From contig CAZJCG010000019.1 of NCBI GenBank assembly GCA_964544545.1, positions 3,031 through 67,030 on the forward strand: 64,000 bases of DNA, given 5' to 3'. Below the pieces are notes generated by a model, which saw nothing but the letters and a program-made list of their open reading frames with translations, had not been told where the DNA came from and made no database searches. The DNA comes from an uncultured Lentimicrobiaceae bacterium (GTDB taxonomy: Bacteria > Bacteroidota > Bacteroidia > Bacteroidales > UBA4417). Every line of letters starts with the position of its first letter. Positions within the stretch are counted from its first letter, which is position 1. This document shows positions 32,261-64,000 of this stretch, piece after piece. Made by a program: the position numbers and the translations under genes.

Positions 32261-33541
32261 ATGCGAATTAAGAGTCTCATTTTTGCTGTCACCTTCTGTT
32301 TTCTTACGTTATCAGCTTTGTCGTCCATGGCCCAGAGGTTCTATGTAGAAACCTGGACCGGAACGTTCGATTTCTGCCCGGATGCCACACAGGCTGTTCC
32401 CGTCAATGTTAAGAACATGATCGGTGTCGACTCGTTCAACCTGGTTTTAAATTATGATCCCCAGGTGATCTCCTATGAGTCCTATTATCTTATGAATGCC
32501 GGACTCAACGGCGGAAATTTCACGGTGAACACCCTTCCCGGACAGGTGACGATTAATTGGTACAGGAACAATGAAACTACGTTGTTTCTCGACACTCTCG
32601 TAATATTAAAATTCAAGGGAATTTCCGGTCAAACCGACCTCGAATGGGACCAGAGCAATCCCGGAAACTGCATCTATCATAGCGGCGACAGCCTGATGTC
32701 GGCCGTTTTTACCGATGGCTTAGCCAGGGTGACTCCTGTAATGCATTTGACGTTGAAGGAAATCGATCCCACCTGTACCGGTAAATGTGTTGCCAACTAC
32801 ATGGCCAATATCACAGGAGGTGTGCCGCCTTATTCCTTCCTTTGGAACGATCGACCCGGAAGGTTTGACTCCATCCAGACAGATCTATGCGACGGCCCTA
32901 ACATCATCCGCATCACCGACCAAAACGGCTGCAACCTCGACAGCACCTTCCAGATCGAAGGATTGCCTGGGGCCAAGGTAAACCTGAAGATTGAATGCGA
33001 AGGCGATACTACAACCGTGCTCTATCGCGAAAATCCAATCCTGACATTCAGTTTTGAAGAAATCAGTCCTACCCATGTGCTCGAACCGCCTCTTTGGGAA
33101 TTCGGCGACGGTGATACTGCCAGGTCGTTCAATCCGACACACCTGTATGAGGGTGCGGACGCAAACCTCGACGGGTTTTATTTATTGAAGCTGCACGTGA
33201 AAAACCAGAACGGCTGCGATACAATCATCACACAGCGAATACCCATCAAGGATCAGAAACTCAAGATATCCAATGTGATCATCCCGAATTCAGCTACTCC
33301 CGAAAACAGAGTGTTTACAATTTTCGATGAAAACGGGAACCTGCTTGATAACGAGTATGTACGTTTCGAGGTGTACATTTTTGACCGCTGGGGCAGAAGG
33401 TTATACAGCAGTTCGGATTATAAAAACGACTGGAGCCCCTCCGGGGCTCCTGACGGGGTCTATTATTACGTCGTTAAGACAATAGGCTACTTCCACGAAG
33501 ATAAATACAAGGGTTCCATTACCATCCTCGGAGGTAATTAA
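32261..33541 (+). CDS. Secreted protein: cohesin-like module, SprB-type repeat, PKD domain, T9SS type B (CHU_C) C-terminal domain
   Basis: 426 aa with a signal peptide. Cohesin-like FNLVLNYDPQVISYES. SprB-like CTGKCVANYMANITGGVPPYSFLWND. PKD WEFGDGDTARSFNPTHLY. C-terminus VYIFDRWGRRLYSSSDYKNDWSPSGAPDGVYYYVV. Confidence 0.75.
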   Translation: MRIKSLIFAVTFCFLTLSALSSMAQRFYVETWTGTFDFCPDATQAVPVNVKNMIGVDSFNLVLNYDPQVISYESYYLMNAGLNGGNFTVNTLPGQVTINWYRNNETTLFLDTLVILKFKGISGQTDLEWDQSNPGNCIYHSGDSLMSAVFTDGLARVTPVMHLTLKEIDPTCTGKCVANYMANITGGVPPYSFLWNDRPGRFDSIQTDLCDGPNIIRITDQNGCNLDSTFQIEGLPGAKVNLKIECEGDTTTVLYRENPILTFSFEEISPTHVLEPPLWEFGDGDTARSFNPTHLYEGADANLDGFYLLKLHVKNQNGCDTIITQRIPIKDQKLKISNVIIPNSATPENRVFTIFDENGNLLDNEYVRFEVYIFDRWGRRLYSSSDYKNDWSPSGAPDGVYYYVVKTIGYFHEDKYKGSITILGGN

Positions 33542-41698: not shown

Positions 41699-41715
41699 AA
41701 TGATTCGAATGATTT

Positions 41716-43440: not shown

Positions 43441-43471
43441 AGTGCTACCTGTTTGCGAGAATTATCAAATG

Positions 43472-45400: not shown

Positions 45401-45411
45401 AGAAGGGAATA

Positions 45412-45873
45412 TTAGGCCTTTTTACGATACATTTCGATGATGGAGGATATTCCTGATGCCGTAACGGCATTATGAAAGACTCCGTTGATATTCATGACCG
45501 GCCCGTTGCTGCATGCACCCATGCAACTAACCGTCTCAAGGCTGAAATAGCCGTCACGGGTAGTCTGCCCTTCCTTGATTTTCAATACCTTCTCGACTTC
45601 GCGCAGAACGTTGAGCGAGCCATTCATGTGACAAGCAGTTCCCCGGCATACGAGTATGTGGTAACGGCCTTTGAGCACAAACCGGAACTGGTTAAAGAAA
45701 GTGGCAATTCCGTAAATCTTACTGGCTGGCATTCCCAGGTAGGCGCCTACCTTGATTATTGATTCTTCATTCAGGTATCCAAACTCTTCCTGGATTTCCT
45801 GCAAAAGCGGAAGCAACGACTCCGGCGCACCCTTTTTATACCGGCCAACCAATTCATCCAATGAAACAGGCAT
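45412..45873 (-). CDS. hydC: NuoE-like 2Fe-2S subunit HydC
   Basis: 153 aa with CRGTACHMNG and CMGACSNGP cysteine pairs. It lies 11 nt upstream of hydB. Confidence 0.85.
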   Translation of the reverse strand: MPVSLDELVGRYKKGAPESLLPLLQEIQEEFGYLNEESIIKVGAYLGMPASKIYGIATFFNQFRFVLKGRYHILVCRGTACHMNGSLNVLREVEKVLKIKEGQTTRDGYFSLETVSCMGACSNGPVMNINGVFHNAVTASGISSIIEMYRKKA

Positions 45874-45911
45874 AGTCCTTTAAAATAGATTACTCTCCGG
45901 TGATTTAAGCA

Positions 45912-45919
45912 CAAAAATA
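45912..45919 (-). promoter_or_regulatory. -7 box candidate (TATTTTTG on the minus strand) for hydCBA
   Basis: The plus strand reads CAAAAATA, 39 nt upstream of the hydC ATG (45873). Confidence 0.35.
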
Positions 45920-45964
45920 ATTGATAGATCGGAACTATGAAAATTATCTGTGAAAAAAATAACA

Positions 45965-45982
45965 GTGTTATCCTGCTAACAA
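45965..45982. promoter_or_regulatory. Rex-operator-like inverted repeat
   Basis: GTGTTATCCTGCTAACAA contains TGTTA-N6-TAACA and matches TTGTTAAnnnnTTAACAA at 11 of 14 specified positions. A weaker neighbour, CTGTGAAAAAAATAACAG, lies at 45948..45965. Confidence 0.35.
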
Positions 45983-46015
45983 TTGAAGCATGAGTCGAAC
46001 TTTAATTACTTTTGT

Positions 46016-46165
46016 TTTATACTTCGGCTGAACAGGTTTGCCCCAAGGGGGACCCTTCGGGTCAAAATTTGTTTTTCGGGACTTGCTCAGTAATACTGAA
46101 TCTAATCAGCTTTGCTTTGACTCAAAGAGTCCCCTTTGGGGCAAACCTGTTAAGATTCATTATAT
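46016..46165. repeat. Structured ~150-bp repeat, copy 2 (MITE-like), inside the divergent hydrogenase control region
   Basis: Homologous to 410..560. A perfect 12-bp inverted pair CAGGTTTGCCCC/GGGGCAAACCTG flanks a conserved core. It contains a GACCCTTCGGGTC hairpin. Confidence 0.6.
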
Positions 46166-46217
46166 ATTCGTTATCTGTTACGGTTGGATTGGAAAACCCG
46201 CTATTTTCGACACTGTC

Positions 46218-46493
46218 ATGGAAAACCCACGAAAAGAGATAGTCATTTGCCTTGGAAGCTCCTGTTTTGCCAGGGGAAACAAGATGCTTGTAAAACTCAT
46301 CAATGATTACCTTCGCGACAGGGACCTTCTGAACCATGTCAGGTTCCACGGAGAGCGCTGCTTCGGACATTGCGCCAAAGGACCTGTCCTGAAAATCGAC
46401 GAGGTGATCCATGAAAAGATCGACGAAGAAAAAGTACAACAACTCCTCGACGCATTCTTCCAGTCGGTAATTGAACAGGAATACGGCAGGTAA
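46218..46493 (+). CDS. Thioredoxin-like [2Fe-2S] ferredoxin
   Basis: The ORF starts at 46038 but its first 60 codons read through the repeat; ATG 46218 (MENPRKEIVICLGSSCFARGN...CFGHCAKGP) gives the usual ~90-aa protein with Cx4C...Cx3C. Confidence 0.75.
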   Translation: MENPRKEIVICLGSSCFARGNKMLVKLINDYLRDRDLLNHVRFHGERCFGHCAKGPVLKIDEVIHEKIDEEKVQQLLDAFFQSVIEQEYGR

Positions 46494-46508
46494 CCCGATA
46501 TTGACTCC

Positions 46509-48377
46509 ATGAAAACACCTTTGGTTTATATAGTTGACGAAAAATGCAAGGCCTGCTATGCCTGCATCCGGATCTGCCCGGTTAAGGCGATCGAGCTCAG
46601 CAACAACGACGAATTCCCGCGGATTGTCCCGGAACGCTGTATCGGTTGCGGCAGTTGCCTCGAAGTCTGCCATCCCGGTGCCATCCGCTATTACGATTCA
46701 ACCAGCGAGGCAAGGGCTTTACTGGAATCACCGAGAAAGGTCGCAGCCCTGGTCAGCCCCGGTATTTCGGGCGAGTTTGACGACATTACCGACTACCGCA
46801 AATTTGTCAGGATGTTGCTTGAAGCCGGCTTCGATTATGTTCATGAAGCAGCCTTCGGCGTTGACCTGGTCGCAAAAGATTACAATCAACTGATATCTAA
46901 TTTCCTCGGCAGATACTACATCTTTTCAAACTGCCCTCCCGTTGTTGCATGGATCGAAAAATACTATCCTCATCTGCTGGATAATCTTGCTCCGATCGTA
47001 TCGCCAATGATCGCCGGCACCAGGGTGATCCGTCAGGAACATGGCAACGACACCGCCGTGGTGTTCATAGGCCCCTGCATCGGCGCCAAAGAAGAGGCTC
47101 TTCGCTATGAAGATGAAGCCAAGGTGGACGCAGTCCTTACTTTCACCGAACTCCGTCAACTCTTCGAAGAGGCGGGAATCAAGGAAAGCACGGTTGAGTA
47201 TTCCGATTTCGACGGGCCTATCGGGCACAAAGGCTCCATTTATCCGATCAGTAACGGGATACTTCAGGCCGGAAACATCAGCGAAGATATCCTTCAGGGA
47301 AGTCTGGTCACCGCCGACGGTCGGGATACGGTGATGCAGGCAATCCGGCAGTTCGATGAAAGCATCGACCTGATACATAAACACTTCAACCTCTTTTACT
47401 GCGAGGGCTGCATCATGGGACCCGGTACTTCTGCCGGAGGTAAAAAATTCAAGAGGCATACCCTGGTCACCGAATATGCCAACAAGCGACTCAGGGATTT
47501 CGATATTAGCAGCTGGGAGGAAAACATGAGACGGCATGAAAAACTGGACCTGAGCTGTGCCTTCCGGTCTGATGACCAGCGTTTGCCTGTACCTTCGGAA
47601 GAAAAAGTTGAAGAAGTCCTGAAGATCATTGAAAAGAACGAATCGGAACAGGATCTGGGATGCAGGGCCTGCGGATATGATAGTTGCCGGGAGTTCGCTT
47701 CAGCCGTTGCCAACGGGATCGCCCGGACCGACATGTGCATCATGCATTCACTCAAGAGCAAGCAAGAGTATATCCGGACTTTGAAAATTACCAACGAAAA
47801 GCTCGCCCGCACACAACAAGCCTTGCTGGAATCAGAGAAAAGAGCCCTCGGCGAAAAACAGCTTGCCCAGGATGCCCTGGAAACCTCGCAGACCATGCTG
47901 CGGAAACTTCCAACGGCTGTCGTGATCGTGGATGATAACCTGAAAATCATAGGCTCCAACGACAGCTTTGTGACGATCCTGGGTGAGGACGCTGCCGAAA
48001 TCAACGACATTATTCCCGGACTCATCGGTGCCGACCTGAAGACCTTACTGCCTGTACAGTTCTATAAACTCTTTTCTTACGTGCTTACCAGCAATGAAGA
48101 TGTAATGGGAAGGGATGTACATATTGGCGACAAGTTATTGAATGTCACCATTTTCGGAATAAAAAAGAACAAGATAGTCGGTGGCGTGGTCAGGGACATG
48201 TATATGCCTGAAGTAAGGAAAGAAGAGGTGATCAGTCGGGTAACCGAGGTGATCGATCAAAACCTGGAACTGGTGCAGCAGATCGCTTTCCTCCTGGGCG
48301 AAGGAGCTTCCAAAACAGAGAAGATGCTGAATTCTATCATAGAGTCACATCGTTCGCAAGAAAGCAGTAAGCCCTGA
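46509..48377 (+). CDS. hydS: Sensory-type [FeFe]-hydrogenase with C-terminal PAS domain (HydS-like)
   Basis: 622 aa. Two ferredoxin motifs. H-domain motifs FSNCPPVV, GPCIGAKEE and YCEGCIMGPG. Extra motif CRACGYDSC-x16-C. Coiled coil, then a PAS-like segment (LPTAVVIVDDNLKIIGSNDSFVTILG). Confidence 0.8.
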   Translation: MKTPLVYIVDEKCKACYACIRICPVKAIELSNNDEFPRIVPERCIGCGSCLEVCHPGAIRYYDSTSEARALLESPRKVAALVSPGISGEFDDITDYRKFVRMLLEAGFDYVHEAAFGVDLVAKDYNQLISNFLGRYYIFSNCPPVVAWIEKYYPHLLDNLAPIVSPMIAGTRVIRQEHGNDTAVVFIGPCIGAKEEALRYEDEAKVDAVLTFTELRQLFEEAGIKESTVEYSDFDGPIGHKGSIYPISNGILQAGNISEDILQGSLVTADGRDTVMQAIRQFDESIDLIHKHFNLFYCEGCIMGPGTSAGGKKFKRHTLVTEYANKRLRDFDISSWEENMRRHEKLDLSCAFRSDDQRLPVPSEEKVEEVLKIIEKNESEQDLGCRACGYDSCREFASAVANGIARTDMCIMHSLKSKQEYIRTLKITNEKLARTQQALLESEKRALGEKQLAQDALETSQTMLRKLPTAVVIVDDNLKIIGSNDSFVTILGEDAAEINDIIPGLIGADLKTLLPVQFYKLFSYVLTSNEDVMGRDVHIGDKLLNVTIFGIKKNKIVGGVVRDMYMPEVRKEEVISRVTEVIDQNLELVQQIAFLLGEGASKTEKMLNSIIESHRSQESSKP

Positions 48378-53893: not shown

Positions 53894-55393
53894 TCAGGGA
53901 TAAACCGCTCCAATAAAGGCATTAGAATTATTATCCACCACCATCATATCCGACGAGTCGATCAGTCCATCGCCATTGCAATCTCCCGGCAGGTATCCGG
54001 TAGCAAACACAGACACATCATTATCGACCATGATCAGGTCGCTGGAGTCAATCAGACCGTCCTGGTTGACATCGCCTGTGTATAGCGCCCAGATCCCGTC
54101 TGCCATCTGGATCATGTTATCACCGTATGTCTGGAGAGCAGAACTAGCAAATTCATATATAATAGTGCTTCCCGAAAAGGAAATGGCTGTAGCAGAAACG
54201 ACAGGGATACTGTTACGGTGCCTGATCGTCAGGTAGTAGAAACCATTATAAACAGCCGGAATGGAGAAGTTAACAATGCCATCGGTACCAAGAACCAGAT
54301 TCTGCAATGTAAGCACCGTAGCATTATAGTCAGCAGCATCATGCAGTTCCACGGTGACCTGATCGGCAATCCCGCTTCCGAAATTTGGTCCGGATTCATT
54401 GAAAGCCTGGCTCATATGCCCGCCGCTCTGGTATAATCCCTGAACATACAAGCGGATATGAACTTGCTTATCGCATACACCCGCAGCTTCCGGGACCACC
54501 GATCCATTCAGATAGTACAAATCCTGCGGCGTATCGTTAAGTATTGTAAGACCGGGCGGAGGACCAGTATAACTGCATGACGGACCGTTGTCGATCCAGC
54601 TGAGCGAAGTAGAACCGCCCAGGTAAGTAAAATGAACCGTAACAAGTTCCGCATCGGAAGGCAGTGTGACCCCTGAACCTGTTGCAGGTGCTGTACCGGT
54701 AACGGATATAACCCCTGCCACCGATCCGTCGACCGATAGTCCGGGAAAAAGAGCATTCCCTGTAGCCGTCTGGAATACCAGGACTGAAGGATCATACTGT
54801 AATTGAAGTGTGACGGATCCGATATGACTGAAATTACTTACAGTAACAGGTACACTGACATCACTGCCAGGGCAGGCAGCCAGGTTGGGTGCCGCTGTGA
54901 GCGGGGCATCCGTTGAAAGCACCGTCAGTGATCCGGGGATATAGAAACTTGATGCAGGCGAATCGTTGAGTGGTGCCCAGCTTCCGCTGTAATAAATACA
55001 CGAATAGCCATTATCGGAAAAGGAAATTGCGGTTGTTCCAGGGCTGACCCGTAAAAAGCTCAGTGTAAAAAGCAACGTGTTATCAGGAACTGTACAACCC
55101 GGATAGGTGTACCAGCCCAGGCTTATAAAACCAGGATCCGACACGTTGAAATTCAGGTAACCACCCAGCTGAGAACCGGCAGTCACGCTGGTAGCCAACA
55201 CGATCGACGGATCATAAACCAGTAAGAGGTTGCAACTACCGATGTCGGTAAAGCCGGTAGCCGTAATTGCTATGGTTGTGGCTGGTTCACTAAAGACTGA
55301 ACTGCCCGCTGTAGTCACCGGTGCATTCTGTGCCCTGATCATACTGACTGCCAGCATGCAGCACAACACGAAGGGAATCAAAGTCTTTTTCAT
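53894..55393 (-). CDS. Secreted protein: two cohesin-like modules, a middle domain and a C-terminal dockerin; no T9SS CTD
   Basis: 499 aa with a signal peptide ending AQNAPV. Cohesin-like modules (IGSCNLLLVYDPSIVLATS and IGSVTLQLQYDPSVLVFQT). Duplicated Ca-binding repeats DVNQDGLIDSSDLIMVDN and DCNGDGLIDSSDMMVVDN. Confidence 0.75.
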   Translation of the reverse strand: MKKTLIPFVLCCMLAVSMIRAQNAPVTTAGSSVFSEPATTIAITATGFTDIGSCNLLLVYDPSIVLATSVTAGSQLGGYLNFNVSDPGFISLGWYTYPGCTVPDNTLLFTLSFLRVSPGTTAISFSDNGYSCIYYSGSWAPLNDSPASSFYIPGSLTVLSTDAPLTAAPNLAACPGSDVSVPVTVSNFSHIGSVTLQLQYDPSVLVFQTATGNALFPGLSVDGSVAGVISVTGTAPATGSGVTLPSDAELVTVHFTYLGGSTSLSWIDNGPSCSYTGPPPGLTILNDTPQDLYYLNGSVVPEAAGVCDKQVHIRLYVQGLYQSGGHMSQAFNESGPNFGSGIADQVTVELHDAADYNATVLTLQNLVLGTDGIVNFSIPAVYNGFYYLTIRHRNSIPVVSATAISFSGSTIIYEFASSALQTYGDNMIQMADGIWALYTGDVNQDGLIDSSDLIMVDNDVSVFATGYLPGDCNGDGLIDSSDMMVVDNNSNAFIGAVYP

Positions 55394-55456
55394 AGCAGTA
55401 GTCTTTGAGCATTCTTAGCAAACGTGTATTAAATTTGAATCAGCCCGGGGATATTA

Positions 55457-55714
55457 TTACTCCTCAGGTTTACCCAATTTCTCTGTTTTAGGGAAACGCA
55501 TCCTGCGCAGGCCATACGCTACACCAAAGGCTATCAGAATACCGATTCCTTCTCTGATCGGAGCAGAACAATTCCCGGTCCCCGGCTGTGAATTCCCTTT
55601 GATACTATGCTGGGGAGGAGGGATAGGAGGCTGTTGGGCACTGACAGGTGCGAGGCCGGCTGACAGGATCAACAATACTGTAATTGTCAGGAAAATATGG
55701 ATAGAGCGTTTCAT
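55457..55714 (-). CDS. Small secreted/anchored hypothetical protein
   Basis: 85 aa. Signal peptide (ILSAGLAPVSAQ), a Pro-rich linker, then a C-terminal TM helix followed by basic residues (GIGILIAFGVAYGLRRMR). Confidence 0.4.
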   Translation of the reverse strand: MKRSIHIFLTITVLLILSAGLAPVSAQQPPIPPPQHSIKGNSQPGTGNCSAPIREGIGILIAFGVAYGLRRMRFPKTEKLGKPEE

Positions 55715-55746
55715 GGTATAAGGTTTTTTCTTGCTACAATTCTCGA

Positions 55747-58203
55747 TTATCGTACGATCACTTTCTGTGCTCCTGCTCCGGTGACAGCGATCACCCGGAC
55801 AATATATACGCCGGGATGTCCCTGCAAATCGATCTGCAATGGCGATCCGGCGAAAACCTCATCGCTGCCGATCATTCTGCCTGCCATATCATTTACCATC
55901 ACTTTACAGTTGGCTGATTCTGAGGTAACATGGATCACTCCGCCTGTTGCATAAACAGTAAAACCGCTTGCCGAGAGTGATTCCGGTACCGAATATGCAC
56001 CCTTGAAGGTCAGTTTAAAACGGTTGGCATCTTCCCCTTCCGAAGCAGTGAAAGAATAGACCGGATCAGTTGTCAGATCAGTAACGGAACCCGTCAGTTT
56101 ATCAGTAAGAAATATCGTTCCGACAGATGAGATTGTTGATGCTGTGAGTTCAATGCTGAACGAAGAAGAAAGGTTCTTCACAAATCCCATTTCCACCGCA
56201 CGATTGTCGGACAGGTCAGGAAGAGTATTTGTGCTCAAACTTTCCCCGTTCTGCGTGGAATAGAACAAGGGGGCATAGCCAGGCAGGAAACGGGCATCGA
56301 AAGCGGCATCAAAGCCTTCAGTGGCCTGATCGTTTATACGGATAATACTCTGCTGGGCAGTACTGTTCTCTATATCTCTGACCGTAAGCACGATCCGTTC
56401 ATCGGTACTTTTATACCATGGCAGCGCACTATGAACCCTGGCAGTAGCAGGAATCATGAGTGATCCCGCAGGGGAACCAACCACCTGGACCATAAAACCA
56501 TTCATGGCAGGAATGATATCGTCTGAAAAAATGTCGACATACGCTGCGGCGGATTCCTGCCATATCTTGGCGATTGAAGCTACGTTGTTCAGAGCCCAGT
56601 TACCATCATTCCATTTGAGAGCCGACGGATAAGGATTGCCGAGTAAATTCCAGCCGTGATTGGCAGTACTGCCGTTGTTGGTCAGACTGCTTACCGGAAC
56701 ATCGGTTACATTCAGAGTGCCTGCGAACGTCCTGGTACCGGCAACCTGATAGGCTGATAAATATCCTTTACCAACAATGAACTCCGGCTCAAAACCAGAA
56801 GCCCAGCCGGATGAAGTCTGCGAATTGATCCATTCGTTGGCCGGTTCGCCCCAACTGTAGAAATCGATTGCATCATTCGGCGGACTTGTAACGAATTCCG
56901 GTTGAACAGGCTGGGCGTTCACAGGCGAAGAAAGGAAATGCCATCCGTGGCAGCAATCAATCCAGGGTGAGTTGATATACCGCTGTACAGTTGCATTCAC
57001 AACACTGTTGGTTATCAATGAACCTGTGCCGGTTGCATCGCTTTGTATCAGAATACCTCCAACCCCTGCATTATTTACGAGGGAACCGCTAACCGTGAGC
57101 GTTCCGGTCGGACCAACTATAAGGTTTGCCAGAGAAGCTATATTCAACCCAGCAATTACCACATCACTGGAGATGAGCGGGTAATTCGGCATCCCGTTGT
57201 TTACATTAGCTGTGCTTGTGATACCCGGCACTCCGCATGACCAGTTACCAGGATTTTCCCAACTCGTGCTCATGCTGCCAAGCCAATCGGTTGTCAGGCC
57301 CGGGCTCACCATTCCGTTTAAATAGTATGTCGACTGGGGCGAATCGTTCAGTGTGGGAGTTCCCAACGGGCCTGCATATTCACAGGAGCCACCGTCATCA
57401 ATCCAGTTCAGGCCTGTAGCACCTCCAAGGTAGTCGAAATTGAGGGTGCAAAGAGTTTGATTATCAGGATAGGTTACTCCCATCGCAGATGACGAGAATC
57501 CGCCGATAATAATTACTCCTGCCGACGGTGAATTGATAATGAGTCCCGGGTAACCTGATGTATTCACACCTGATACAAAGGATAGCACAGACGGATCGTA
57601 ATTCAATGTGAGGGAGACGGCTCCGATTGTATTGAAATTATTGACCTTCACCGGAACGCTAAGCACCGAACCCGGACAGGCAACCACAGGATCGAAATAG
57701 GTTGTGGGAGCATAGTCCTGGAACTCGACAGAACCTGCAATATAGTAGGATGAAGCCGGAGCATCGTTCAGTGTATTGTAGCTTCCGTCGGTATAAATAC
57801 AGGACATATCATCCGATGACCAGGTCACCGGAGATACACCGTTTGCAACTTTAGAAAATTCAATCAGGAAGGCAACGGAATTATCAGGTATGGTCAATCC
57901 TGGCACCACATACCATCCGAACCGTACCGTACCCGGGACAGGGATATAATAATCCAGTCCGGAAAAGCCTGAGGAGAGCGGAGGGGCTGCAGTTACCGAA
58001 GTCACTGTAGCGATTGAAGGATCATAATACATTTCCAGGTTACAACTCCCGATATTGATAAAATCAGTCACTGTAATAGGCAGCACCAGAGATGTGCCGG
58101 TGGATGACACATTGCCGGCAATAGAAACCGGGGCATTCTGGGCAACCTGGTCCTGCAGGAATGCTGCGAATAAAATCCATAAAATAAGTAGGAGTTTTTT
58201 CAT
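55747..58203 (-). CDS. Surface protein: two cohesin-like modules, a large middle region and a T9SS type A C-terminal sorting domain
   Basis: 818 aa. AQNAPVSIAGN. IGSCNLEMYYDPSIATVTS and IGAVSLTLNYDPSVLSFVS. C-terminus GVYIVRVIAVTGAGAQKVIVR. Confidence 0.8.
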   Translation of the reverse strand: MKKLLLILWILFAAFLQDQVAQNAPVSIAGNVSSTGTSLVLPITVTDFINIGSCNLEMYYDPSIATVTSVTAAPPLSSGFSGLDYYIPVPGTVRFGWYVVPGLTIPDNSVAFLIEFSKVANGVSPVTWSSDDMSCIYTDGSYNTLNDAPASSYYIAGSVEFQDYAPTTYFDPVVACPGSVLSVPVKVNNFNTIGAVSLTLNYDPSVLSFVSGVNTSGYPGLIINSPSAGVIIIGGFSSSAMGVTYPDNQTLCTLNFDYLGGATGLNWIDDGGSCEYAGPLGTPTLNDSPQSTYYLNGMVSPGLTTDWLGSMSTSWENPGNWSCGVPGITSTANVNNGMPNYPLISSDVVIAGLNIASLANLIVGPTGTLTVSGSLVNNAGVGGILIQSDATGTGSLITNSVVNATVQRYINSPWIDCCHGWHFLSSPVNAQPVQPEFVTSPPNDAIDFYSWGEPANEWINSQTSSGWASGFEPEFIVGKGYLSAYQVAGTRTFAGTLNVTDVPVSSLTNNGSTANHGWNLLGNPYPSALKWNDGNWALNNVASIAKIWQESAAAYVDIFSDDIIPAMNGFMVQVVGSPAGSLMIPATARVHSALPWYKSTDERIVLTVRDIENSTAQQSIIRINDQATEGFDAAFDARFLPGYAPLFYSTQNGESLSTNTLPDLSDNRAVEMGFVKNLSSSFSIELTASTISSVGTIFLTDKLTGSVTDLTTDPVYSFTASEGEDANRFKLTFKGAYSVPESLSASGFTVYATGGVIHVTSESANCKVMVNDMAGRMIGSDEVFAGSPLQIDLQGHPGVYIVRVIAVTGAGAQKVIVR

Positions 58204-58257
58204 GGTATAGTCGGATTTTTGGTTTTCATACTATTTACTCTCGCATCGCTTTCTGAA

Positions 58258-59979
58258 TCATGGATTATGGAACAGTAAACGTGTATCCGTGATTGATATA
58301 TTTCCCGATGTAAATTCCAGCTTCAGCAGGTACATTCCAGCGGCGAGGAAAGAAACATCCCAGTCAAACACCTGTGTGTCTGAAGCTTTGAATATTCGGG
58401 AGCAGGATTTCATTTCCGTTCCGGCAGAACTGAAGAGTTGCATCGTGAGCCTGCCCGGAACTGAAAAATGGCATGACAGAAACAGGTGATCAACAAAAGG
58501 ATTCGGGAAGGCCGTACACTCAAATATCCTGGTTCCCGTCATTTCTGAAATTCCAACCGTTTCAGAAACATTCAGGACAGCCGTACCATCTGACACAGCT
58601 TCAGGCAAGCATTCCCCCGATACCCTGCAGCGGTATCTGTATCCATCCATTTCCAACGGCGGATCTGAAATCCGGAGGCTGTCGGTTGTCACACCGCTAT
58701 AAAAAGAGCCATCAGTCAGGTCGTTCCATGATGAATCATACTCCTGCCAATGGTAAGTCAATCCTGTTCCGGAAGCAGCAAGCGTAAAAACGGCTAAGCC
58801 GTTACCTGCAACGATCTCCGGAGTGGATACCGGCTCTGTCAGGATCACAGGCGGTTCGTTCACTACGACATTCAACGGTGGGGCTGCCGCACCGTTCCCG
58901 CATTCATTGAAGGCATATACCATCACCTCGCCACTGGAAGCCTGACTTCCGAATTTAACGGTAATCGCGTTGGTATTAAATCCTGAAACGAGAGTAGCTC
59001 CCGCGGGCACAGTCCAGGTATAGCCGGTTGCATTTGTAACCGGAACGACGGAATATGCATGCGTTTCATCACCCCGGCATACTGCCTGAGGCCCGGAAAT
59101 CGCACCCGCATTACCCGGCACAGAGCCCACTGTTACCTGGGTAAATGATGAATCACCCGTACCACAACCATTTGATCCCGAAACGGCAACCATGCCGGAA
59201 ACCGCATCATTGTTAAAATCAACGGTAATAATGTTGGTATTGGTTCCAGAAACGATTTCAGCCCCGTCGGGAATCATCCAGTTATAAACAGTAGCATTCG
59301 TTATTGGGTCAACCGAGAAAATTACCCCGGTCTGCCCCTTGCATACAGAACCTCCGGCAGGCCCGGCAATATAGCCCGGAGAGGCCGGATCCTCCAGTAT
59401 TGTTATTGATCCATCGGTATAGAATGAGGATTGGGGAGTATCGTTCAGACCGGGATAATAAGGAGGCGGTCCGGAGTATTCGCAGGATGAGCCGTCGTCA
59501 AACCATTCCAGACCGGAAAAATTCCCTATGATGTTAAAATTCAGGATAAAAAGCACTGAACTGTCGGGTAGAGAATATCCCTGTGTTCCTCCTGACAGAT
59601 ATCCGCCGGCAATGATGGTGCCGGGCGACGGACAATTCACAATGAGTCCCGGAAATCCTGAGGCATTGTTCCAGGATTGATAATCCAATGTGAGCGAATC
59701 GTAATGTAAGGTGAGTGAAAGAGCCCCGATGTTCGAAAAAGAGGATACCTTAACTGGAACTGAAACCGCAGCGGTTCCATTACAGTAGACTAGATCAGGC
59801 AGCAAGGTTACCGGAGCATTGATCACTGCTGATGTTGAAGCACAGACTTCACTACTCGCGGGACAAATAATACTTTTATTCCCGGCAACAGCATTCAGCT
59901 CCCTGGCCGAACTGTTTCCGGTCAACAGACACAGGCACCAAAATCCTGCAATAAAACGGCTGGTTAATCCCTTTTTCAT
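58258..59979 (-). CDS. Surface protein: one cohesin-like module, two PKD-like repeats, an Ig-like domain and a T9SS type A CTD
   Basis: 573 aa. IGALSLTLHYDSLTLDYQS. Repeats CKGQTGVIFSV...YNWMIPDGAEIV...CG and CRGDETHAYSV...YTWTVPAGATLV...CG. LTYHWQEYD. FPNPF...GMYLLKLEF. Confidence 0.8.
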   Translation of the reverse strand: MKKGLTSRFIAGFWCLCLLTGNSSARELNAVAGNKSIICPASSEVCASTSAVINAPVTLLPDLVYCNGTAAVSVPVKVSSFSNIGALSLTLHYDSLTLDYQSWNNASGFPGLIVNCPSPGTIIAGGYLSGGTQGYSLPDSSVLFILNFNIIGNFSGLEWFDDGSSCEYSGPPPYYPGLNDTPQSSFYTDGSITILEDPASPGYIAGPAGGSVCKGQTGVIFSVDPITNATVYNWMIPDGAEIVSGTNTNIITVDFNNDAVSGMVAVSGSNGCGTGDSSFTQVTVGSVPGNAGAISGPQAVCRGDETHAYSVVPVTNATGYTWTVPAGATLVSGFNTNAITVKFGSQASSGEVMVYAFNECGNGAAAPPLNVVVNEPPVILTEPVSTPEIVAGNGLAVFTLAASGTGLTYHWQEYDSSWNDLTDGSFYSGVTTDSLRISDPPLEMDGYRYRCRVSGECLPEAVSDGTAVLNVSETVGISEMTGTRIFECTAFPNPFVDHLFLSCHFSVPGRLTMQLFSSAGTEMKSCSRIFKASDTQVFDWDVSFLAAGMYLLKLEFTSGNISITDTRLLFHNP

Positions 59980-60594
59980 CTGATTGAGAGTAACCTGAAC
60001 CTACATCCGCTACTTACGAATGGCTTTCCTGATTGTATGAGTCAGATCGATAAGAAAAGAAGTAATACGAGTTAGTATAGTGGATCAAGGAATAGCTTAA
60101 CAGATACAAGTACTGAATAAATGTTTTGATTTCTATTGTTTTGTTAGTATTTTAATTTTTCAGTGTCAGACAATTCATAGCTAATTATCACGCATACTGC
60201 TAATTAACAATCGCTATTCAGTACATTGATCCTACCACAAATACGGAATGCACTCCGGTTGGTTCATCAATCAATTCTCCTCAAGTAAAAATCAAGTAAC
60301 TGATTAACAAGCATCTTAGAAGTTTATTCTCCACAGTATCCAACCCGATGCGCCAAAGCACTATTCAGGCCGGAATAGGGTAATCAGTTAACTTCAATAC
60401 CTGTGCCATGTTTGCTAACGCGTTATTCCATGCATCGTTACAGATGTAAAGACATAAAGAATCTCTACATTTTTTACCAGATTTGGACAATTTTTCCGCC
60501 GCAGGTTACAAAGCCGACTTATTTATTCAAATTCGCTTGCTTTCCTTTGGTCTATCTATATCTTTGTTTTTACTTGATTTGAATCAGGCCCGGC

Positions 60595-63216
60595 TCACTT
60601 TTTCACTATTCTCAGTGACCGGGAAACAGGTCCATCTGCCAGACTCATCTGCAACATCACCAGATAGAAGCCAGGCTTCAGAGCAGATACATCTGCCTGA
60701 CAGGTACGTTCACCGGCAGATGAGTTTTCATGGAGAAGGGTCATGATGGCAGAGCCGGTGATATCCAATATCTTCAGAGAGACTAAACCTTCATCAGGCA
60801 TGTTATAGGAAAGTGTAAGGGATTCGGTGAAAGGATTGGGATAGCCTGACAAATACGGGATTGTGCCTCTGTCGGGATTTCCTGCGCCTGCAGTTGCTCC
60901 CTCCACGGCATCAACAGAAATGATTGTCTCGGGTATCCCGTTGAAATCAGGGCCTGTCAGTTCAGACCTTTGATCACTGATCAACCGGAATCCAACAACT
61001 TCATCGGGATTCAGAGAAGAGATCAGGCTTGCATGGATCGTCAGCAGCCGGTCTCCCCGATTCAAAGCCAGGGGCAATGCCGAATACCAGCCTATACGAA
61101 GCTCATTTCCATAAACGGCATACGGAACCGTGACTGTTTCATCGTCACCGAGAGTAACATCCCGGATCATTATTTTTTCAGCCGGGAAGCCCAGTATCAA
61201 CGAAACCGCGGATATTTCAAGGTTTTCTTTTACCCGGACATCAATGTTCATGTCATCGCCGTTCTGATGATGCAACCGTTCTCCAGGTTCCAGAATTATT
61301 GAACTTTCCGTTGATTTGGTACCAGCCGGATTATAACTCCGGTTGAAGTCACCGGTTACCAAAGCATAATAATCCTGTACCATGGAACTGACACCCGCCG
61401 GAACGGAAAGATGAACTGACCTGTCGGGCCAGGGTGAAGGGTTTTGTGATGAAACCAACTCGCCTGCGTTCCAGAATGTCCAGGCCGGGATAAACGCCGG
61501 ATTACCTGCTGTAAGGAAGTAATTCAGTAATCGGCCGGCATCAGCAGCCAACAATTGGTTGTCGGTAATAACGTCACCGGCATAGAAACGGACTTTCTCA
61601 ATTGAATACTGAGGGCCCACGCCCCACATATTAACCTGAGCTGCATCGGTGGCATTGATCCCGCCGACAGCTTTATCCGCTATGAATTCAACATCGTAAT
61701 CGCCTGCGCATAAAGAGGTAAATGAATAGTTGCCGTCTGAATCCGTTGCCGTCGTATGAACAACAGCGCCATCCTGAGTGAGATTGATGGTAACACTGCT
61801 CATGGCAGTGCCTGCGTCATTGTAATAGGAAAGCTTTCCTGAGAGCATTGAATGTTGCACAGGAGTTATGTTTGTCATCGTCCCTTCCGAAATGCATCCA
61901 TCGGCATTCATTGCTGTAACGTCGTAGTTTCCCGGGATCAGGTCAACGAAGATGCCATTGGTGTTCAGGTAGGTTGTACCGTCAATGCTGTATGTCATGC
62001 CGCTACCCGTAGGAGCCGTGACCGTGATCGTGCCGGTGGGCACAGTGCAGGAAGGTTGAATTACGTTAACTGTCGGAGCTTCCGGAGCTGGTGGCTGCGG
62101 GCTGATTATCGCAACCGTTCCGCCGGAAATGCAGCCTTCTGAATTCTTTGCGGTGACGTTATAGGTCCCGGGTGTAACTTCGCTGAAATGTCCGTTTGTG
62201 TTGGTATAGGTTGTTCCGTCGATGCTGTAGCTCATGCCCGAACCGGTGGGTGTTGTTACAGTGATCGTTCCGGTGGCTGCCGTGCAGCCAGGCTGGGTTA
62301 AAGAGAGTGAAGGGGCAGAAGGAGCCGAACTGCTAACCTGTCCGTTGAGATAATAAACTTCAGCCGGCACATCATTCAGGGTGTTCCCCGCTGCATCAAG
62401 GTAGCGGCAGGAAATGCCGTTATCGTACCAGTTGAGCGGACTGACACCTCCCAGGTAACTAAAGTTTAGGGAGAATAAGGTGGAATTATCCGGATAGGTG
62501 ATCCCTGATGCAGATGATCCATTTAAGGTGATGGTTCCGGCCGATGGAGAACTGATCGTCAGTCCGGGAAATCCCGAATTATTGATCCCTGATAAAAAGG
62601 TCAGCACGGCGGGATCGTAATTCATCGTAAGATTAACCGTACCAATTGAATTGAAAGAGTTGACGGTGACAGGTATGGTCATCGTTGATCCAGGGCAGGC
62701 TTCCATCGAGTGGGCAATGGTAATAGGCGCATTTGATCCGAATTGAACGGACCCCGGAATGTAATAATCTGATTGCGGAGAATCATTCAGCACAAAGTAG
62801 TTGCCATCGTAGAACAGATTTGAACCGTCATCGGTATCCCATGTAACAGGTGAAACGCCGCTCGTCACTTTGGTGCACTGGATATAGAATACAATCGAAT
62901 TGTCAGGTACACTCATTCCGGGATAGGTGTACCATCCAAAGTTAAAGACTCCCGGAGTGGTGACATTGTAATTCAGGTACGTACCGGCAAGTACAGAACC
63001 CGTTGTTACCGCAGTCACCGTCATTACTGCCGGATCATAATGCAGCTTCATATTGCACCCCACGATGTTGGTGAAATTCGTCACCGTGACCGGGAGGCTG
63101 GCTGTGGCAGCAGTTGTGACCATGTTTGCGACGGTGGAAACCGGAGCGTTCTGAGCAAACAGGTTTAGACTGGTTGAAAGAAGAAATACAGAAAGTAAAA
63201 GATATCTGTTTTTCAT
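60595..63216 (-). CDS. Surface protein: two N-terminal cohesin-like modules, two Ig-like tandem repeats, a degenerate dockerin-like segment, a third cohesin-like module and a T9SS type A CTD
   Basis: 873 aa. AQNAPVSTVAN. VGCNMKLHYDPAVMTVTA and IGTVNLTMNYDPAVLTFLS. A tandem ~80-aa repeat (GTITVTTPTGSGMSYSIDGTTYTNTNG / GTITVTAPTGSGMTYSIDGTTYLNTNG). ISAVSLILGFPAEKIMIRD. YPNPF...GFYLVMLQM. Confidence 0.8.
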   Translation of the reverse strand: MKNRYLLLSVFLLSTSLNLFAQNAPVSTVANMVTTAATASLPVTVTNFTNIVGCNMKLHYDPAVMTVTAVTTGSVLAGTYLNYNVTTPGVFNFGWYTYPGMSVPDNSIVFYIQCTKVTSGVSPVTWDTDDGSNLFYDGNYFVLNDSPQSDYYIPGSVQFGSNAPITIAHSMEACPGSTMTIPVTVNSFNSIGTVNLTMNYDPAVLTFLSGINNSGFPGLTISSPSAGTITLNGSSASGITYPDNSTLFSLNFSYLGGVSPLNWYDNGISCRYLDAAGNTLNDVPAEVYYLNGQVSSSAPSAPSLSLTQPGCTAATGTITVTTPTGSGMSYSIDGTTYTNTNGHFSEVTPGTYNVTAKNSEGCISGGTVAIISPQPPAPEAPTVNVIQPSCTVPTGTITVTAPTGSGMTYSIDGTTYLNTNGIFVDLIPGNYDVTAMNADGCISEGTMTNITPVQHSMLSGKLSYYNDAGTAMSSVTINLTQDGAVVHTTATDSDGNYSFTSLCAGDYDVEFIADKAVGGINATDAAQVNMWGVGPQYSIEKVRFYAGDVITDNQLLAADAGRLLNYFLTAGNPAFIPAWTFWNAGELVSSQNPSPWPDRSVHLSVPAGVSSMVQDYYALVTGDFNRSYNPAGTKSTESSIILEPGERLHHQNGDDMNIDVRVKENLEISAVSLILGFPAEKIMIRDVTLGDDETVTVPYAVYGNELRIGWYSALPLALNRGDRLLTIHASLISSLNPDEVVGFRLISDQRSELTGPDFNGIPETIISVDAVEGATAGAGNPDRGTIPYLSGYPNPFTESLTLSYNMPDEGLVSLKILDITGSAIMTLLHENSSAGERTCQADVSALKPGFYLVMLQMSLADGPVSRSLRIVKK

Positions 63217-63644
63217 GATTCCGGATGATTGGGATTGTTCAGTTTATTAAATTGAACCGATGACTGCTGAGTTCGATCCTTTGGAGCAAGGCAGGCTTTA
63301 ACCGTGAGATTGGAAAGAATAAAACGTACTGCCATTTATTGCTCAGAACGCAGCAGGCAGCTAGGATCATGATGAGCACATTATTCTTTGTACATTCCTC
63401 TCTACATTCAATAACGCAGTAAAAGACAGCCGAAAGTTGAAGGCTTTAATGGCTTTATTTATCAGCATGTCTGAGAAGTATAAGGAACTACTTTCACTTC
63501 CTGTTGCCAGCCATCTTATCCTTGATCGGACAGATTCAACTGTTAAGCCAGACTCCCCGAATTACTTACTTAAACAGTCATGAGAGCTGCGTCGGTTTTC
63601 TTCCTGGCATCAAGCCGTTTCGGTTTCCTTTGCCGGATAATAAT

Positions 63645-63680
63645 AAACGGGAGCGGGAGGAAAACCTCCCGCTCCCGTTT
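63645..63680 (-). terminator. Rho-independent terminator
   Basis: Perfect 16-bp stem AAACGGGAGCGGGAGG-AAAA-CCTCCCGCTCCCGTTT, 6 nt downstream of the stop at 63687 on the minus strand. Confidence 0.7.
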
Positions 63681-63686
63681 GGATCA

Positions 63687-64000
63687 TCAGTGATTTCTGA
63701 TGATCTTGATGGTCCGTTCATAGATTGCCCCTGAGGCATTCAGCCGCATGGTGGCCAGATAAACTCCCGGAGTCAATGCATCCGTATCGATTGTCAACGT
63801 ATGCTTTCCGGAAGTCTGGTCTTCATTGAGTAAGTTCATTACTCTTGCTCCCAGCATATTGCTAACTTCCAGCGTTACCTTGCCGGTAAGTGGCAGGTCG
63901 TAAGTGAAGGTTGTAGTATGCTTGAAGGGGTTAGGCTGATTGGCCAGGGTCAATGTATTTCCGGCAATCACTTCCTGCGTACCGACTGCGCTGCTGCTCA
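63687..64000 (-). CDS. C-terminal part of a T9SS-sorted protein (5' end outside the window)
   Basis: The reading frame stays open to the window edge. The last ~85 aa form a type A sorting domain (QPNPFKHTTTFTY...GVYLATMRL...IKIIRNH). Confidence 0.7.
   Translation of the reverse strand, partial: SSSAVGTQEVIAGNTLTLANQPNPFKHTTTFTYDLPLTGKVTLEVSNMLGARVMNLLNEDQTSGKHTLTIDTDALTPGVYLATMRLNASGAIYERTIKIIRNH

Follow-up and report, generated by a model that had tools for sequence, protein, structure and literature searches.

We analyzed a 64,000-nucleotide stretch of DNA (the window) from contig CAZJCG010000019.1 of an uncultured Lentimicrobiaceae bacterium of the Bacteroidales, in which a cluster of genes for secreted, cohesin-bearing proteins runs from position 53894 to the window edge at 64000. 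An earlier note, made from the letters alone, had placed every gene in this interval on the minus strand, and the layout of open reading frames (ORFs) bears this out. The cluster encodes proteins of 499, 818, 573 and 873 amino acids (aa), an 85-aa ORF and the C-terminal 103 aa of a giant gene, here called gene 5 (Table 1). Altogether we counted at least 10 cohesins in five proteins, a single canonical dockerin and two segments that look like decayed dockerins. We read the cluster, with moderate confidence, as part of a surface-assembly system, and set out below the modules, their relatives and the grounds for and against that reading.

Cohesins, dockerin and sorting domains of the cluster

Four of the proteins had been described as opening with one cohesin-like module each. 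The Pfam family Cohesin (PF00963; gathering score, 24.1 bits) matched two stretches in each of the 499-aa (55.3 bits), 818-aa (54.0 bits) and 873-aa (64.0 bits) proteins and stayed under its cutoff in the 573-aa protein (19.2 bits) and in a 426-aa relative encoded outside the cluster (16.8 bits). We then applied a hidden Markov model (HMM) specific to the family and trained on 150 of its modules. It scored the window modules at 150 to 174 bits each, including 152 and 160 bits for the two modules of the 499-aa protein and 154 bits for the 573-aa protein, and scored the module of the 426-aa protein at 72 bits; because of these last two values, the 573-aa and 426-aa modules join the cohesin family. 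The cohesin identity of all four modules therefore stood, but the count did not, since three of the proteins have two in tandem, and the module of the 573-aa protein does not lie at its very beginning.

When eight of the window modules were aligned, they fell into two subtypes. Subtype 1 comprises the module right after the signal-peptide cleavage site (between A and QNAPV), and subtype 2 comprises the second module plus the single one of the 573-aa protein. Between proteins, subtype-1 modules are 44 to 46% identical, against 33 to 35% between subtype 1 and subtype 2; cohesins 1 and 2 of the 499-aa protein share 33%. A profile of the eight modules matched solved cohesins, the best being 2xdh, a non-cellulosomal cohesin of Archaeoglobus fulgidus (E = 1.8e-6), with 1g1k and 2vn5 also matched and type I cohesins of Clostridium cellulolyticum and ScaB cohesins of Acetivibrio cellulolyticus next in line.

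The 873-aa protein carries a further module that Pfam missed. Pfam scans of residues 520 to 650 and 640 to 795 matched nothing, and it was profile-profile comparison and structure prediction that exposed it. Together with 22 homologs, this segment matched the cohesin profile in hhalign with a probability of 92.9% (E = 3.7e-7). Its AlphaFold2 (AF2) model had a pLDDT of 80, rising to ~90 over the module, and all 28 best Foldseek matches in the PDB were cohesins, with 2xdh at E = 4.5e-8 and a target-normalised TM-score of 0.69. The beta-sandwich beside the sorting domain of the 873-aa protein is a third, divergent cohesin. Among the cohesins of the window, it is this one whose fold was modelled, the N-terminal modules being judged by sequence profile.

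The 499-aa protein had been reported to lack a type IX secretion system (T9SS) sorting domain and to end in a duplicated dockerin repeat, and both statements were confirmed. Dockerin_1 (PF00404; cutoff, 22.9 bits) scored 29.6 bits for the full-length protein and 37.0 bits for its tail taken alone. Both 12-residue calcium loops, DVNQDGLIDSSD and DCNGDGLIDSSD, are intact, with the calcium-coordinating Asp or Asn present at loop positions 1, 3, 5, 9 and 12, and a scan of the window in all six frames gave no further loop of this kind. The repeats are nearly symmetrical, with Ser-Ser at loop positions 10 and 11 of both, where paralogs have TG/TG or TA/TA.

Immediately before the dockerin lies an X module, and we refer to the two together as X-Doc. 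Type II X-dockerin dyads attach cellulosomes to cell-surface cohesins. The AF2 model of the 203-aa X-Doc unit (pLDDT 96, pTM 0.89) is that of a single rigid body and consists of a beta-sandwich followed by two helices (residues 154 to 165 and 184 to 195), and its ten best Foldseek PDB matches were without exception such type II dyads, with the X-dockerins (XDoc) of Clostridium thermocellum CipA/CipB and A. cellulolyticus ScaA as fold matches (chains 5k39_B, 2b59_B, 4wi0_B and 5g5d_B). These alignments span ~200 columns and cover X module and dockerin together (E = 4e-6 to 2e-5). The likeness of the X part to the clostridial X modules is at the level of fold, sequence identity over the matches being only 15 to 18%. 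At the sequence level, the X-Doc profile matched cellulosomal dockerins with PDB structures (E = 7e-7 to 1e-3), and the family X-Doc HMM scored 277 bits on the 499-aa protein. The tail of this protein is an X-dockerin unit, and its dockerin is genuine.

Type A sorting domains had been claimed for the 873-aa, 573-aa and 818-aa proteins and for gene 5. We judged them against cutoffs of 23 bits for TIGR04183 and 27 bits for both Pfam Por_Secre_tail (PF18962) and CHU_C; the N-terminal Sec signal peptides of these proteins were called by eye from the translations. The domains of the 873-aa protein (Por_Secre_tail, 38.9 bits) and gene 5 (TIGR04183, 33.9 bits; Pfam, 28.7 to 34.2 bits) were above cutoff, the latter for both families. 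That of the 573-aa protein was borderline, at 22.3 bits just under the TIGR04183 cutoff, and scored 69 bits with a lineage-specific sorting-domain HMM. The 818-aa protein gave a weak TIGR04183 match (19.5 bits) that ends exactly at the C terminus, and its tail was undetected by the lineage-specific HMM. Its ortholog P0301 (55% identical) carries both Cohesin and Por_Secre_tail. The last 518 aa of the 818-aa protein are a cassette that recurs widely, with PF18962 in more than half of the listed homologs, several of which NCBI names as T9SS type A proteins. Since the ortholog and many of the cassette homologs carry such a domain, we accept the 818-aa tail as a T9SS sorting domain. The type B (CHU_C) domain reported for the 426-aa protein was present (42.7 bits).

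The 873-aa protein and gene 5 have a common tail made up of an SdrD_B/CarboxypepD_reg domain, a two-helix segment, the cohesin beta-sandwich and the sorting domain. The two-helix segment reads ..INATDAAQVN..AGDVITDNQLLAADAGRLLNYFL; its calcium ligands are gone, and model confidence over it was low. We considered it as a dockerin and rejected this for the 873-aa protein, given the missing ligands and a nonsignificant hhalign probability of 3.4% against the X-Doc profile. Two homologs, P0021 and P0028, do bear a precomputed Dockerin_1 match, and to judge from its sequence the segment looks like a decayed dockerin. In the model of the whole cassette (pTM 0.72), it may fold back on the adjacent cohesin as an intramolecular pair.

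Gene 5 is far longer than its part in the window. On three public contigs, its product measures 607, 835, 4,765 or 4,836 aa, each time cut by the contig end; it is thus at least 4,836 aa long, a lower bound because every assembly examined stops at a contig end. In the readable 3,175-aa part, right-handed beta-helix repeats occur alongside PKD-like and SprB-type ones, and a cohesin (107 bits) lies internally, ahead of the C-terminal cassette. Near-identical ~76-aa SprB-type repeats are probably what breaks the gene at contig ends. The internal cohesin lies 76 aa apart on two of the contigs, L076 and L077 (1358 versus 1282), which suggests that repeat number varies between samples.

The product of the 85-aa ORF, which lies between the 818-aa and 499-aa genes, is a putative small secreted protein that has a signal peptide, a brief Pro-rich segment and a probable PID-CTERM sorting signal (...GNCSAPIREGIGILIAFGVAYGLRRMRF). 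It scored 23.4 bits against NF046080 (cutoff, 26 bits), and its ortholog at another locus, L081, scored 29.0 bits. The ORF is annotated as a gene on public contigs and is kept at the matching position in that other species (L081, 6020-6262). The earlier inventory of the cluster was therefore incomplete: it had lacked this gene, the giant size of gene 5, and the extra cohesin and decayed dockerin-like part that gene 5 and the 873-aa protein have in common.

Table 1. Coordinates of the cluster genes, their modules and the related 426-aa gene in the window
Feature	Position	Strand	Remarks
426-aa gene	32261..33541	+	outside the cluster; distant relative with 1 cohesin, SprB/PKD-like repeats and type B (CHU_C) domain
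426-aa protein, cohesin	about 32351-32689	+	
426-aa protein, CHU_C	about 33263-33526	+	
499-aa gene	53894..55393	-	putative secreted adaptor: signal peptide, cohesin 1, cohesin 2, X module, dockerin
499-aa protein, dockerin	53897..54079	-	aa 439-499; F-hand calcium loops at aa 441-452 and 471-482, a helix after each; ends ...AVYP
499-aa protein, X module	54080..54493	-	aa ~301-438; beta-sandwich packing on dockerin
499-aa protein, cohesin 2	54494..54913	-	aa 161-300; second subtype
499-aa protein, cohesin 1	54914..55333	-	aa 21-160; directly past predicted cleavage site (between IRA and QNAPV)
85-aa ORF	55457..55714	-	probable PID-CTERM signal
818-aa gene	55747..58203	-	signal peptide, 2 cohesins, ~445-aa uncharacterised region, divergent T9SS sorting domain
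818-aa protein, sorting domain	55750-55968	-	
818-aa protein, uncharacterised region	55969-57300	-	aa 302-745, about 440-445 aa
818-aa protein, cohesin 2	57301-57714	-	
818-aa protein, cohesin 1	57715-58143	-	
573-aa gene	58258..59979	-	signal peptide, 1 cohesin, 2 PKD_6, Ig-like region, T9SS sorting domain
573-aa protein, sorting domain	58261-58515	-	
573-aa protein, Ig-like region	58516-58866	-	
573-aa protein, two PKD_6 domains	58867-59382	-	PKD_6, 148.6 bits
573-aa protein, cohesin	59398-59820	-	subtype 2; starts at ~residue 54
873-aa gene	60595..63216	-	signal peptide, cohesins 1 and 2, repeats, SdrD_B, dockerin-like segment, cohesin 3, sorting domain
873-aa protein, sorting domain	60598-60846	-	
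873-aa protein, cohesin 3	60922-61284	-	divergent; adjoins sorting domain
873-aa protein, two-helix dockerin-like segment	61507-61668	-	aa ~517-570; degenerate
873-aa protein, SdrD_B/CarboxypepD_reg domain	61669-61842	-	SdrD_B, 44.0 bits
873-aa protein, two SprB-like repeats	61852-62325	-	
873-aa protein, cohesin 2	62326-62736	-	
873-aa protein, cohesin 1	62737-63156	-	
Hairpin	63645..63680	-	16 bp, GC-rich; begins 7 nt past the gene 5 stop codon
Gene 5 (giant), C-terminal 103 aa	63687..64000	-	T9SS type A sorting domain; gene runs off the window

The gaps between the 573-aa and 818-aa genes, the 818-aa gene and the 85-aa ORF, and the 85-aa ORF and the 499-aa gene are 54, 32 and 63 bp, and those following gene 5 and the 873-aa gene are 470 and 615 bp. 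The hairpin 3' of gene 5 is terminator-like in sequence. In the intergenic gaps of the cluster, sigma-70-like sites were no more frequent than in shuffled sequence and the exact TAnnTTTG motif was absent. With no promoter signal found, we judged operon structure from gene spacing alone.

Downstream of the cluster lie the convergent housekeeping genes folA and thyA, and ten further large ORFs of the window scanned with Pfam are housekeeping genes too, including those for FtsK, ClpB and signal peptidase. With such neighbors, the cluster sits in the core chromosome and not in any obvious mobile element. Elsewhere in the window, an [FeFe]-hydrogenase-type gene set at ~39671-48377 (Fe_hyd_lg_C, Complex1_51K/NADH_4Fe-4S and a 2Fe-2S thioredoxin-like protein, from the annotation of an identical public contig) is consistent with a fermentative anaerobe. 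A DUF4372 and DDE_Tnp_1 transposase gene (30108-31274, minus strand) lies ~1 kb upstream of the 426-aa cohesin/CHU_C gene, and a 666-aa ORF (15814-17814, minus strand) has no Pfam match at E ≤ 1e-5.

X-Doc and the cluster in related genomes

We scanned one genome per GTDB species for X-Doc and obtained 474 encoding stretches, of which the best 80, those listed, all came from Bacteroidales, Lentimicrobiaceae, Lentimicrobium or unclassified Bacteroidota metagenome-assembled genomes (MAGs). For inspection of the proteins, 69 loci around X-Doc genes were fetched. They hold 129 X-Doc proteins of ~170 to 2,600 aa, whose genes often stand in tandem arrays, and in ~120 of the 129 the unit occupies the extreme C terminus. 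A signal-peptide-like N terminus was found in 99 of 113 re-called proteins. The last residue is Pro in 97 of 102 proteins (commonly ...TP or ...LP) and is invariant in an alignment of 41 copies, in which mean column identity is 51%. The conserved last residue suggests recognition or protection of the free C terminus, and 51% identity across otherwise unrelated proteins is what would be expected if they had a common binding partner. Three single, Lentimicrobiaceae-like MAGs carry at least 21, 14 and 10 copies. Against 1.84 billion representative proteins, the X-Doc profile found 2,943 clusters at E ≤ 1e-30 and 9,308 at E ≤ 1e-10.

The proteins that carry X-Doc are diverse. A set of 36 non-redundant carriers includes the binding modules BACON, GEVED, PKD, Sortilin/BNR, CUB and MAM, as well as enzymes: two Peptidase_M14 proteins, a Peptidase_C25 with its propeptide, a Peptidase_M28, a PETase-like hydrolase and an alpha-amylase. 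GH57 and Trypsin_2 occur as X-Doc cargo elsewhere in relatives. Homologs of the 499-aa protein itself are of three classes, namely, proteins with one to four cohesins and a ~200-aa C-terminal X-Doc, proteins with two to four cohesins, PKD_6 and a T9SS sorting domain, and unrelated proteins bearing the ~200-aa X-Doc. Cohesins were also present on the host protein for 53 of the 326 distinct X-Doc sequences compared, and a 353-aa form with a single cohesin and X-Doc accounts for about 30 clusters.

Two ideas about these proteins were tried and dropped. Export of X-Doc proteins as lipoproteins found little to recommend it, as a lipobox pattern matched just 8 of 113 proteins, mostly implausibly. 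A division into two specificity tiers, with adaptor X-Docs distinct from cargo X-Docs, was likewise unsupported, since distance clustering separated the two weakly and the discriminating positions lay in the X module.

The cluster is conserved beyond the window. At L081, the giant gene, a PKD_6 protein gene, a gene for an 819-aa protein, the PID-CTERM gene and a gene for a 503-aa adaptor follow the order of the window next to the same folA and thyA neighbors, with protein identities of 37 to 53%. At L080, a gene for a 4,385-aa beta-helix protein with a cohesin and a sorting domain is followed by two cohesin-cohesin-X-Doc genes, and L078 resembles it in pairing an adaptor with a giant cohesin-bearing sorting-domain protein. 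In L083, a complete 5.27-Mb MAG, a gene for two cohesins and a sorting domain is flanked by giant genes of 6,478 and 6,883 aa. The most telling relative is the MAG JADJHD01 (L046, 9515-12688), in which every component is present. Its 359-aa cohesin-X-Doc gene is directly followed by the gene for a protein of 690 aa that joins Cohesin to CBM48/AMPK1_CBM, CBM20 and a T9SS sorting domain, by its domains a scaffoldin with starch-binding modules. The same MAG encodes at least 13 X-Doc cargo proteins, including GH57, a CBM20 protein and a trypsin-like peptidase. By analogy, this set looks like a T9SS-anchored amylosome-like architecture.

The fetched loci also bear on the uncharacterised region of the 818-aa protein, which had no Pfam match and returned zero matches in a PDB sequence search. 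A domain of this ~440-aa type occurs in loci L034, L040, L070, L074, L078 and L080, always ~75 to 90 aa from the C terminus and preceding a divergent T9SS sorting domain, behind N-terminal parts as varied as PKD, GEVED, LamG, G8, a GH5 cellulase and cohesins. Of the ~13 distinct genes that carry the cassette, six have an X-Doc gene no more than 125 bp away, an enrichment that is uncertain as the loci were picked around X-Doc.

A proposed surface-assembly model and its alternatives

We consider it reasonably probable that the cluster encodes the receptor side of a T9SS-anchored, non-cellulolytic cohesin-dockerin system for surface assembly, made up of anchors, an adaptor and cargo. This reading starts from what the analysis established directly, namely, domain identities, folds, the modular structure of the families, conservation of the cluster and co-occurrence in single genomes. 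The fusions, gene neighborhoods, cluster conservation and co-occurrence in single MAGs suggest that the cohesins and X-Doc belong together, and the modules recombine much as they do in cellulosomes. The families involved are large, but their modular architecture and gene neighborhoods link them, so they are not just ordinary members of a very large and unrelated T9SS cargo family, an outcome that the earlier note had said would count against its proposal.

From these observations we infer that cohesin and dockerin bind, that the proteins lie at the cell surface and what the cargo of this organism is. The anchors would be the giant beta-helix/SprB-like adhesin of gene 5 and the 873-, 573- and 818-aa proteins, each with a Sec signal, one to three cohesins and a sorting domain; going by established T9SS biology, they would be exported by this system and held on the cell surface. 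The X-Doc of the 499-aa protein would plug, in a calcium-dependent way, into a cohesin of an anchored protein, and its own two cohesins would give extra docking sites from which the assembly could branch or extend. Because it has these two cohesins, the 499-aa protein looks like an adaptor scaffoldin rather than the end cargo implied when it was called a dockerin-bearing partner. X-Doc-tagged cargo from elsewhere in the genome would take the free cohesins and, by the example of the relatives, might include peptidases, starch-active enzymes and proteins with BACON, PKD, GEVED or CUB binding modules. Overall, this would be a non-cellulolytic counterpart of the cellulosome layout, with T9SS anchoring replacing S-layer-homology (SLH) or sortase attachment.

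Within the cluster, HMM scans matched no catalytic Pfam or NCBIfam family in any protein, and Pfam scans of the cluster proteins found no glycoside hydrolase (GH) or carbohydrate-binding module (CBM). The local function would accordingly be that of a scaffold or adhesion structure, since the visible parts are all non-catalytic, with the giant adhesin as a long docking platform. The earlier claim of "no enzymes" holds for the cluster but probably not for the system, because X-Doc tags enzymes in relatives. Similarly, the proposal of a T9SS-displayed cohesin scaffold that recruits a dockerin protein from the same cluster was upheld in its domain calls and needs amending in its scope, as most ligands of the at least 10 cohesins are expected to lie elsewhere in the genome.

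Several observations weigh against this reading. X-Doc proteins carry Sec signals but no T9SS sorting domain, and plausible lipoboxes are so few that the model leaves their passage across the outer membrane of a diderm cell unexplained. The weak separation of adaptor and cargo X-Docs gives no clear two-tier specificity like that of type I versus type II pairs. The window has one X-Doc against at least 10 cohesins, and the cargo inventory is drawn from relatives. The fold match of X-Doc is moderate, with a target-normalised TM-score of ~0.64, an rmsd of ~5 Å and 15 to 18% identity. Genes for the T9SS machinery are absent from the window, and no T9SS component was found among the ten Pfam-scanned large ORFs or the annotated neighbors on public contigs. 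Finally, non-cellulosomal cohesin-like and dockerin-like modules are widespread, and their interaction is mostly undemonstrated, according to the passage of PMC6487960 that draws on Peer et al. 2009.

That last point is also the starting point of a reading that we think unlikely, in which generic Ig-like domains for stalks or adhesion account for the cohesin-like modules of the T9SS adhesins, the dockerin is a calcium-stabilised structural or carbohydrate-binding module, and the proteins are surface adhesins that form no complex. For many non-cellulosomal modules no partner is known (Peer et al. 2009, through that passage of PMC6487960), the rest of the cluster proteins consists of adhesin-type repeats (beta-helix, PKD_6, SprB and SdrD_B), and enzymes are lacking in the cluster. 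Set against this are the strong conservation of the calcium loops and the X-dockerin architecture over thousands of proteins, the cellulosome-like recombination of the modules and, in JADJHD01, a CBM-bearing scaffoldin with cohesin and sorting domain whose gene adjoins an adaptor gene in a MAG that also encodes X-Doc enzymes. Rather unlikely, in our view, is an arrangement in which cohesin-X-Doc proteins such as the 499-aa protein and the common 353-aa form link head to tail into surface fibrils or a matrix rooted on anchored cohesins, in place of diverse cargo. It would account for the abundance of proteins made of cohesins and X-Doc only (the 353-aa form with its ~30 clusters and others with two to four cohesins) and for the consistent linkage of the adaptor gene to giant adhesin genes, and near-symmetrical dockerin repeats, SS/SS here and TG/TG or TA/TA in paralogs, are compatible with two binding orientations. 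It leaves unexplained, however, the hundreds of non-cohesin proteins with the same X-Doc, and adaptor X-Docs differ only weakly from cargo X-Docs.

The unexplained outer-membrane route motivates two further ideas. X-Doc might be chiefly a C-terminal tag for export or anchoring, either a new class of secretion signal or a calcium-dependent anchor to lipopolysaccharide or capsule, with the cohesins incidental and not its receptors. The extreme C-terminal position, the nearly invariant terminal Pro and the dozens of copies per genome are all as in a sorting signal, and X-Doc sits on the kinds of protein (Peptidase_C25, M14, M28, BACON, PKD and giant adhesins) that have T9SS sorting domains in other Bacteroidota, while none of these X-Doc proteins has one. 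Known T9SS sorting domains are beta-sandwiches, unlike X-Doc, in which an X module is joined to an alpha-helical, calcium-binding dockerin. Moreover, with 53 of the 326 X-Doc sequences on cohesin-bearing proteins, the two modules are often joined in one polypeptide, and adaptor genes adjoin genes for cohesin and sorting-domain proteins in several species. On balance we regard the tag idea as distinctly improbable, and it is compatible with the surface-assembly model rather than exclusive of it. The other idea, to which we give a lower probability still, is that X-Doc proteins hitch-hike, binding the cohesins of sorting-domain carriers in the periplasm and being co-translocated, folded, through the T9SS translocon. 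If so, cohesin-dockerin pairing would be a piggy-back export code for much of the secretome of the lineage as well as a display scaffold.

The surface-assembly model, if binding is as proposed, would give a two-tier display in which covalently anchored cohesin proteins hold non-covalently docked, exchangeable cargo, a Gram-negative counterpart of the cellulosome or amylosome aimed at protein, starch and perhaps cell-cell adhesion. It would give giant T9SS adhesins a testable role as docking platforms, and it raises the question of how, in a diderm cell, proteins that lack a T9SS sorting domain get to the surface. The compact, well-folding X-Doc and cohesin candidate pairs could also serve as engineering parts for surface display in Bacteroidota.

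Comparison with known systems

Bacteroidota are usually described in terms of polysaccharide utilization loci and T9SS-secreted enzymes, with no cohesin-dockerin systems. This picture changes with the large, modular cohesin/X-dockerin repertoire, tied to T9SS anchors, of a whole Bacteroidales lineage that is common in digesters and wastewater. Bacteroidetes-assigned dockerins have been noted in rumen metagenomes (PMC6487960), and a T9SS study of rumen Bacteroidetes states that the genomes have "no ... cellulosomal components" (PMC5831590). Our literature search found no paper that links Lentimicrobium with dockerin, describes a cellulosome-like system of Bacteroidota's own, or reports a cohesin/X-dockerin system in Lentimicrobiaceae or other Bacteroidales.

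The closest structural parallel is the clostridial type II cohesin/X-dockerin pair (C. thermocellum CipA XDoc with SdbA/OlpB/ScaC and A. cellulolyticus ScaA XDoc with ScaB; PDB 2b59, 5k39, 5g5d and 4wi0), which has the same C-terminal dyad of X module and two F-hands and in which, as predicted for the window, the cohesins are on proteins destined for the cell surface. Unlike those systems, the one described here belongs to a diderm Bacteroidales host and has T9SS sorting domains instead of SLH modules or sortase signals. Its X module is larger (~135 aa), its dockerin repeats are near-symmetrical, its dyad tags ordinary cargo and not just a primary scaffoldin, and it comes with no GH-rich cellulolytic set. 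The 499-aa protein recalls adaptor scaffoldins such as A. cellulolyticus ScaB and Ruminococcus flavefaciens ScaA (PMC4959524, PMC3821032) in joining cohesins and dockerin in one polypeptide; it differs in having just two cohesins and in that self-binding is possible.

Of the strict hallmarks of a cellulosome, a multi-cohesin scaffoldin is present, and dockerin-borne plant-cell-wall GHs and a cellulose-binding CBM are absent. The CBMs of the relatives are of the starch types CBM48 and CBM20, and the cargo consists of peptidases, GH57 or amylase, and binding modules. Lacking both a set of cellulolytic GHs and a CBM for cellulose, the system should not be classed as a strict cellulosome.

A cellulosome-like complex has been predicted from MAGs in another member of the FCB group, "Ca. 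Stygibacter" of the Cloacimonadota (Williams et al. 2021, PMC8542988), a paper that also cites a "planctosome" in Planctomycetes. Like the lineage studied here, "Ca. Stygibacter" has signal-peptide enzymes with C-terminal dockerins (GH18, GH57, S8 and C25) and a cohesin scaffoldin with a C-terminal attachment domain, and its proposed targets are non-cellulosic, on genomic inference as in our case. It differs in its phylum and in having a single 3,755-aa scaffoldin with CBM2/CBM3 in place of several anchors and an adaptor, and no X-dockerin dyad, giant adhesin or PID-CTERM gene is described there.

Cohesins and dockerins are used outside cellulose degradation in other settings as well. These include the A. 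fulgidus cohesin 2xdh, the best match of the window cohesins in both sequence and fold, and the toxin complexes of Clostridium perfringens (2ozn/2jnk). The starch-binding scaffoldin of JADJHD01 recalls the Ruminococcus bromii amylosome (PMC4611034). For Chlorochromatium Cag_2037/2038, a 2026 preprint predicts a cohesin-dockerin pair between neighboring giant surface-protein genes and proposes a role in cell contact (bioRxiv 10.64898/2026.03.19.712371). None of these four systems joins T9SS anchoring with an X-Doc tag family this large.

From the side of the T9SS, the anchors share the N-terminal Sec signal and C-terminal type A domain of displayed cargo such as the gingipains of Porphyromonas gingivalis and SprB of Flavobacterium johnsoniae, and likewise include giant adhesins with SprB-type repeats. 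To our knowledge, T9SS cargo has not been described as a receptor for a second tier of non-covalently docked proteins. Non-cellulosomal cohesin-dockerin assembly at the cell surface is already known, either established or predicted elsewhere (PMC8542988; bioRxiv 10.64898/2026.03.19.712371). New here are the T9SS anchors, the general use of a type II-like X-Doc for tagging cargo, the tier of adaptors and the link with giant adhesins.

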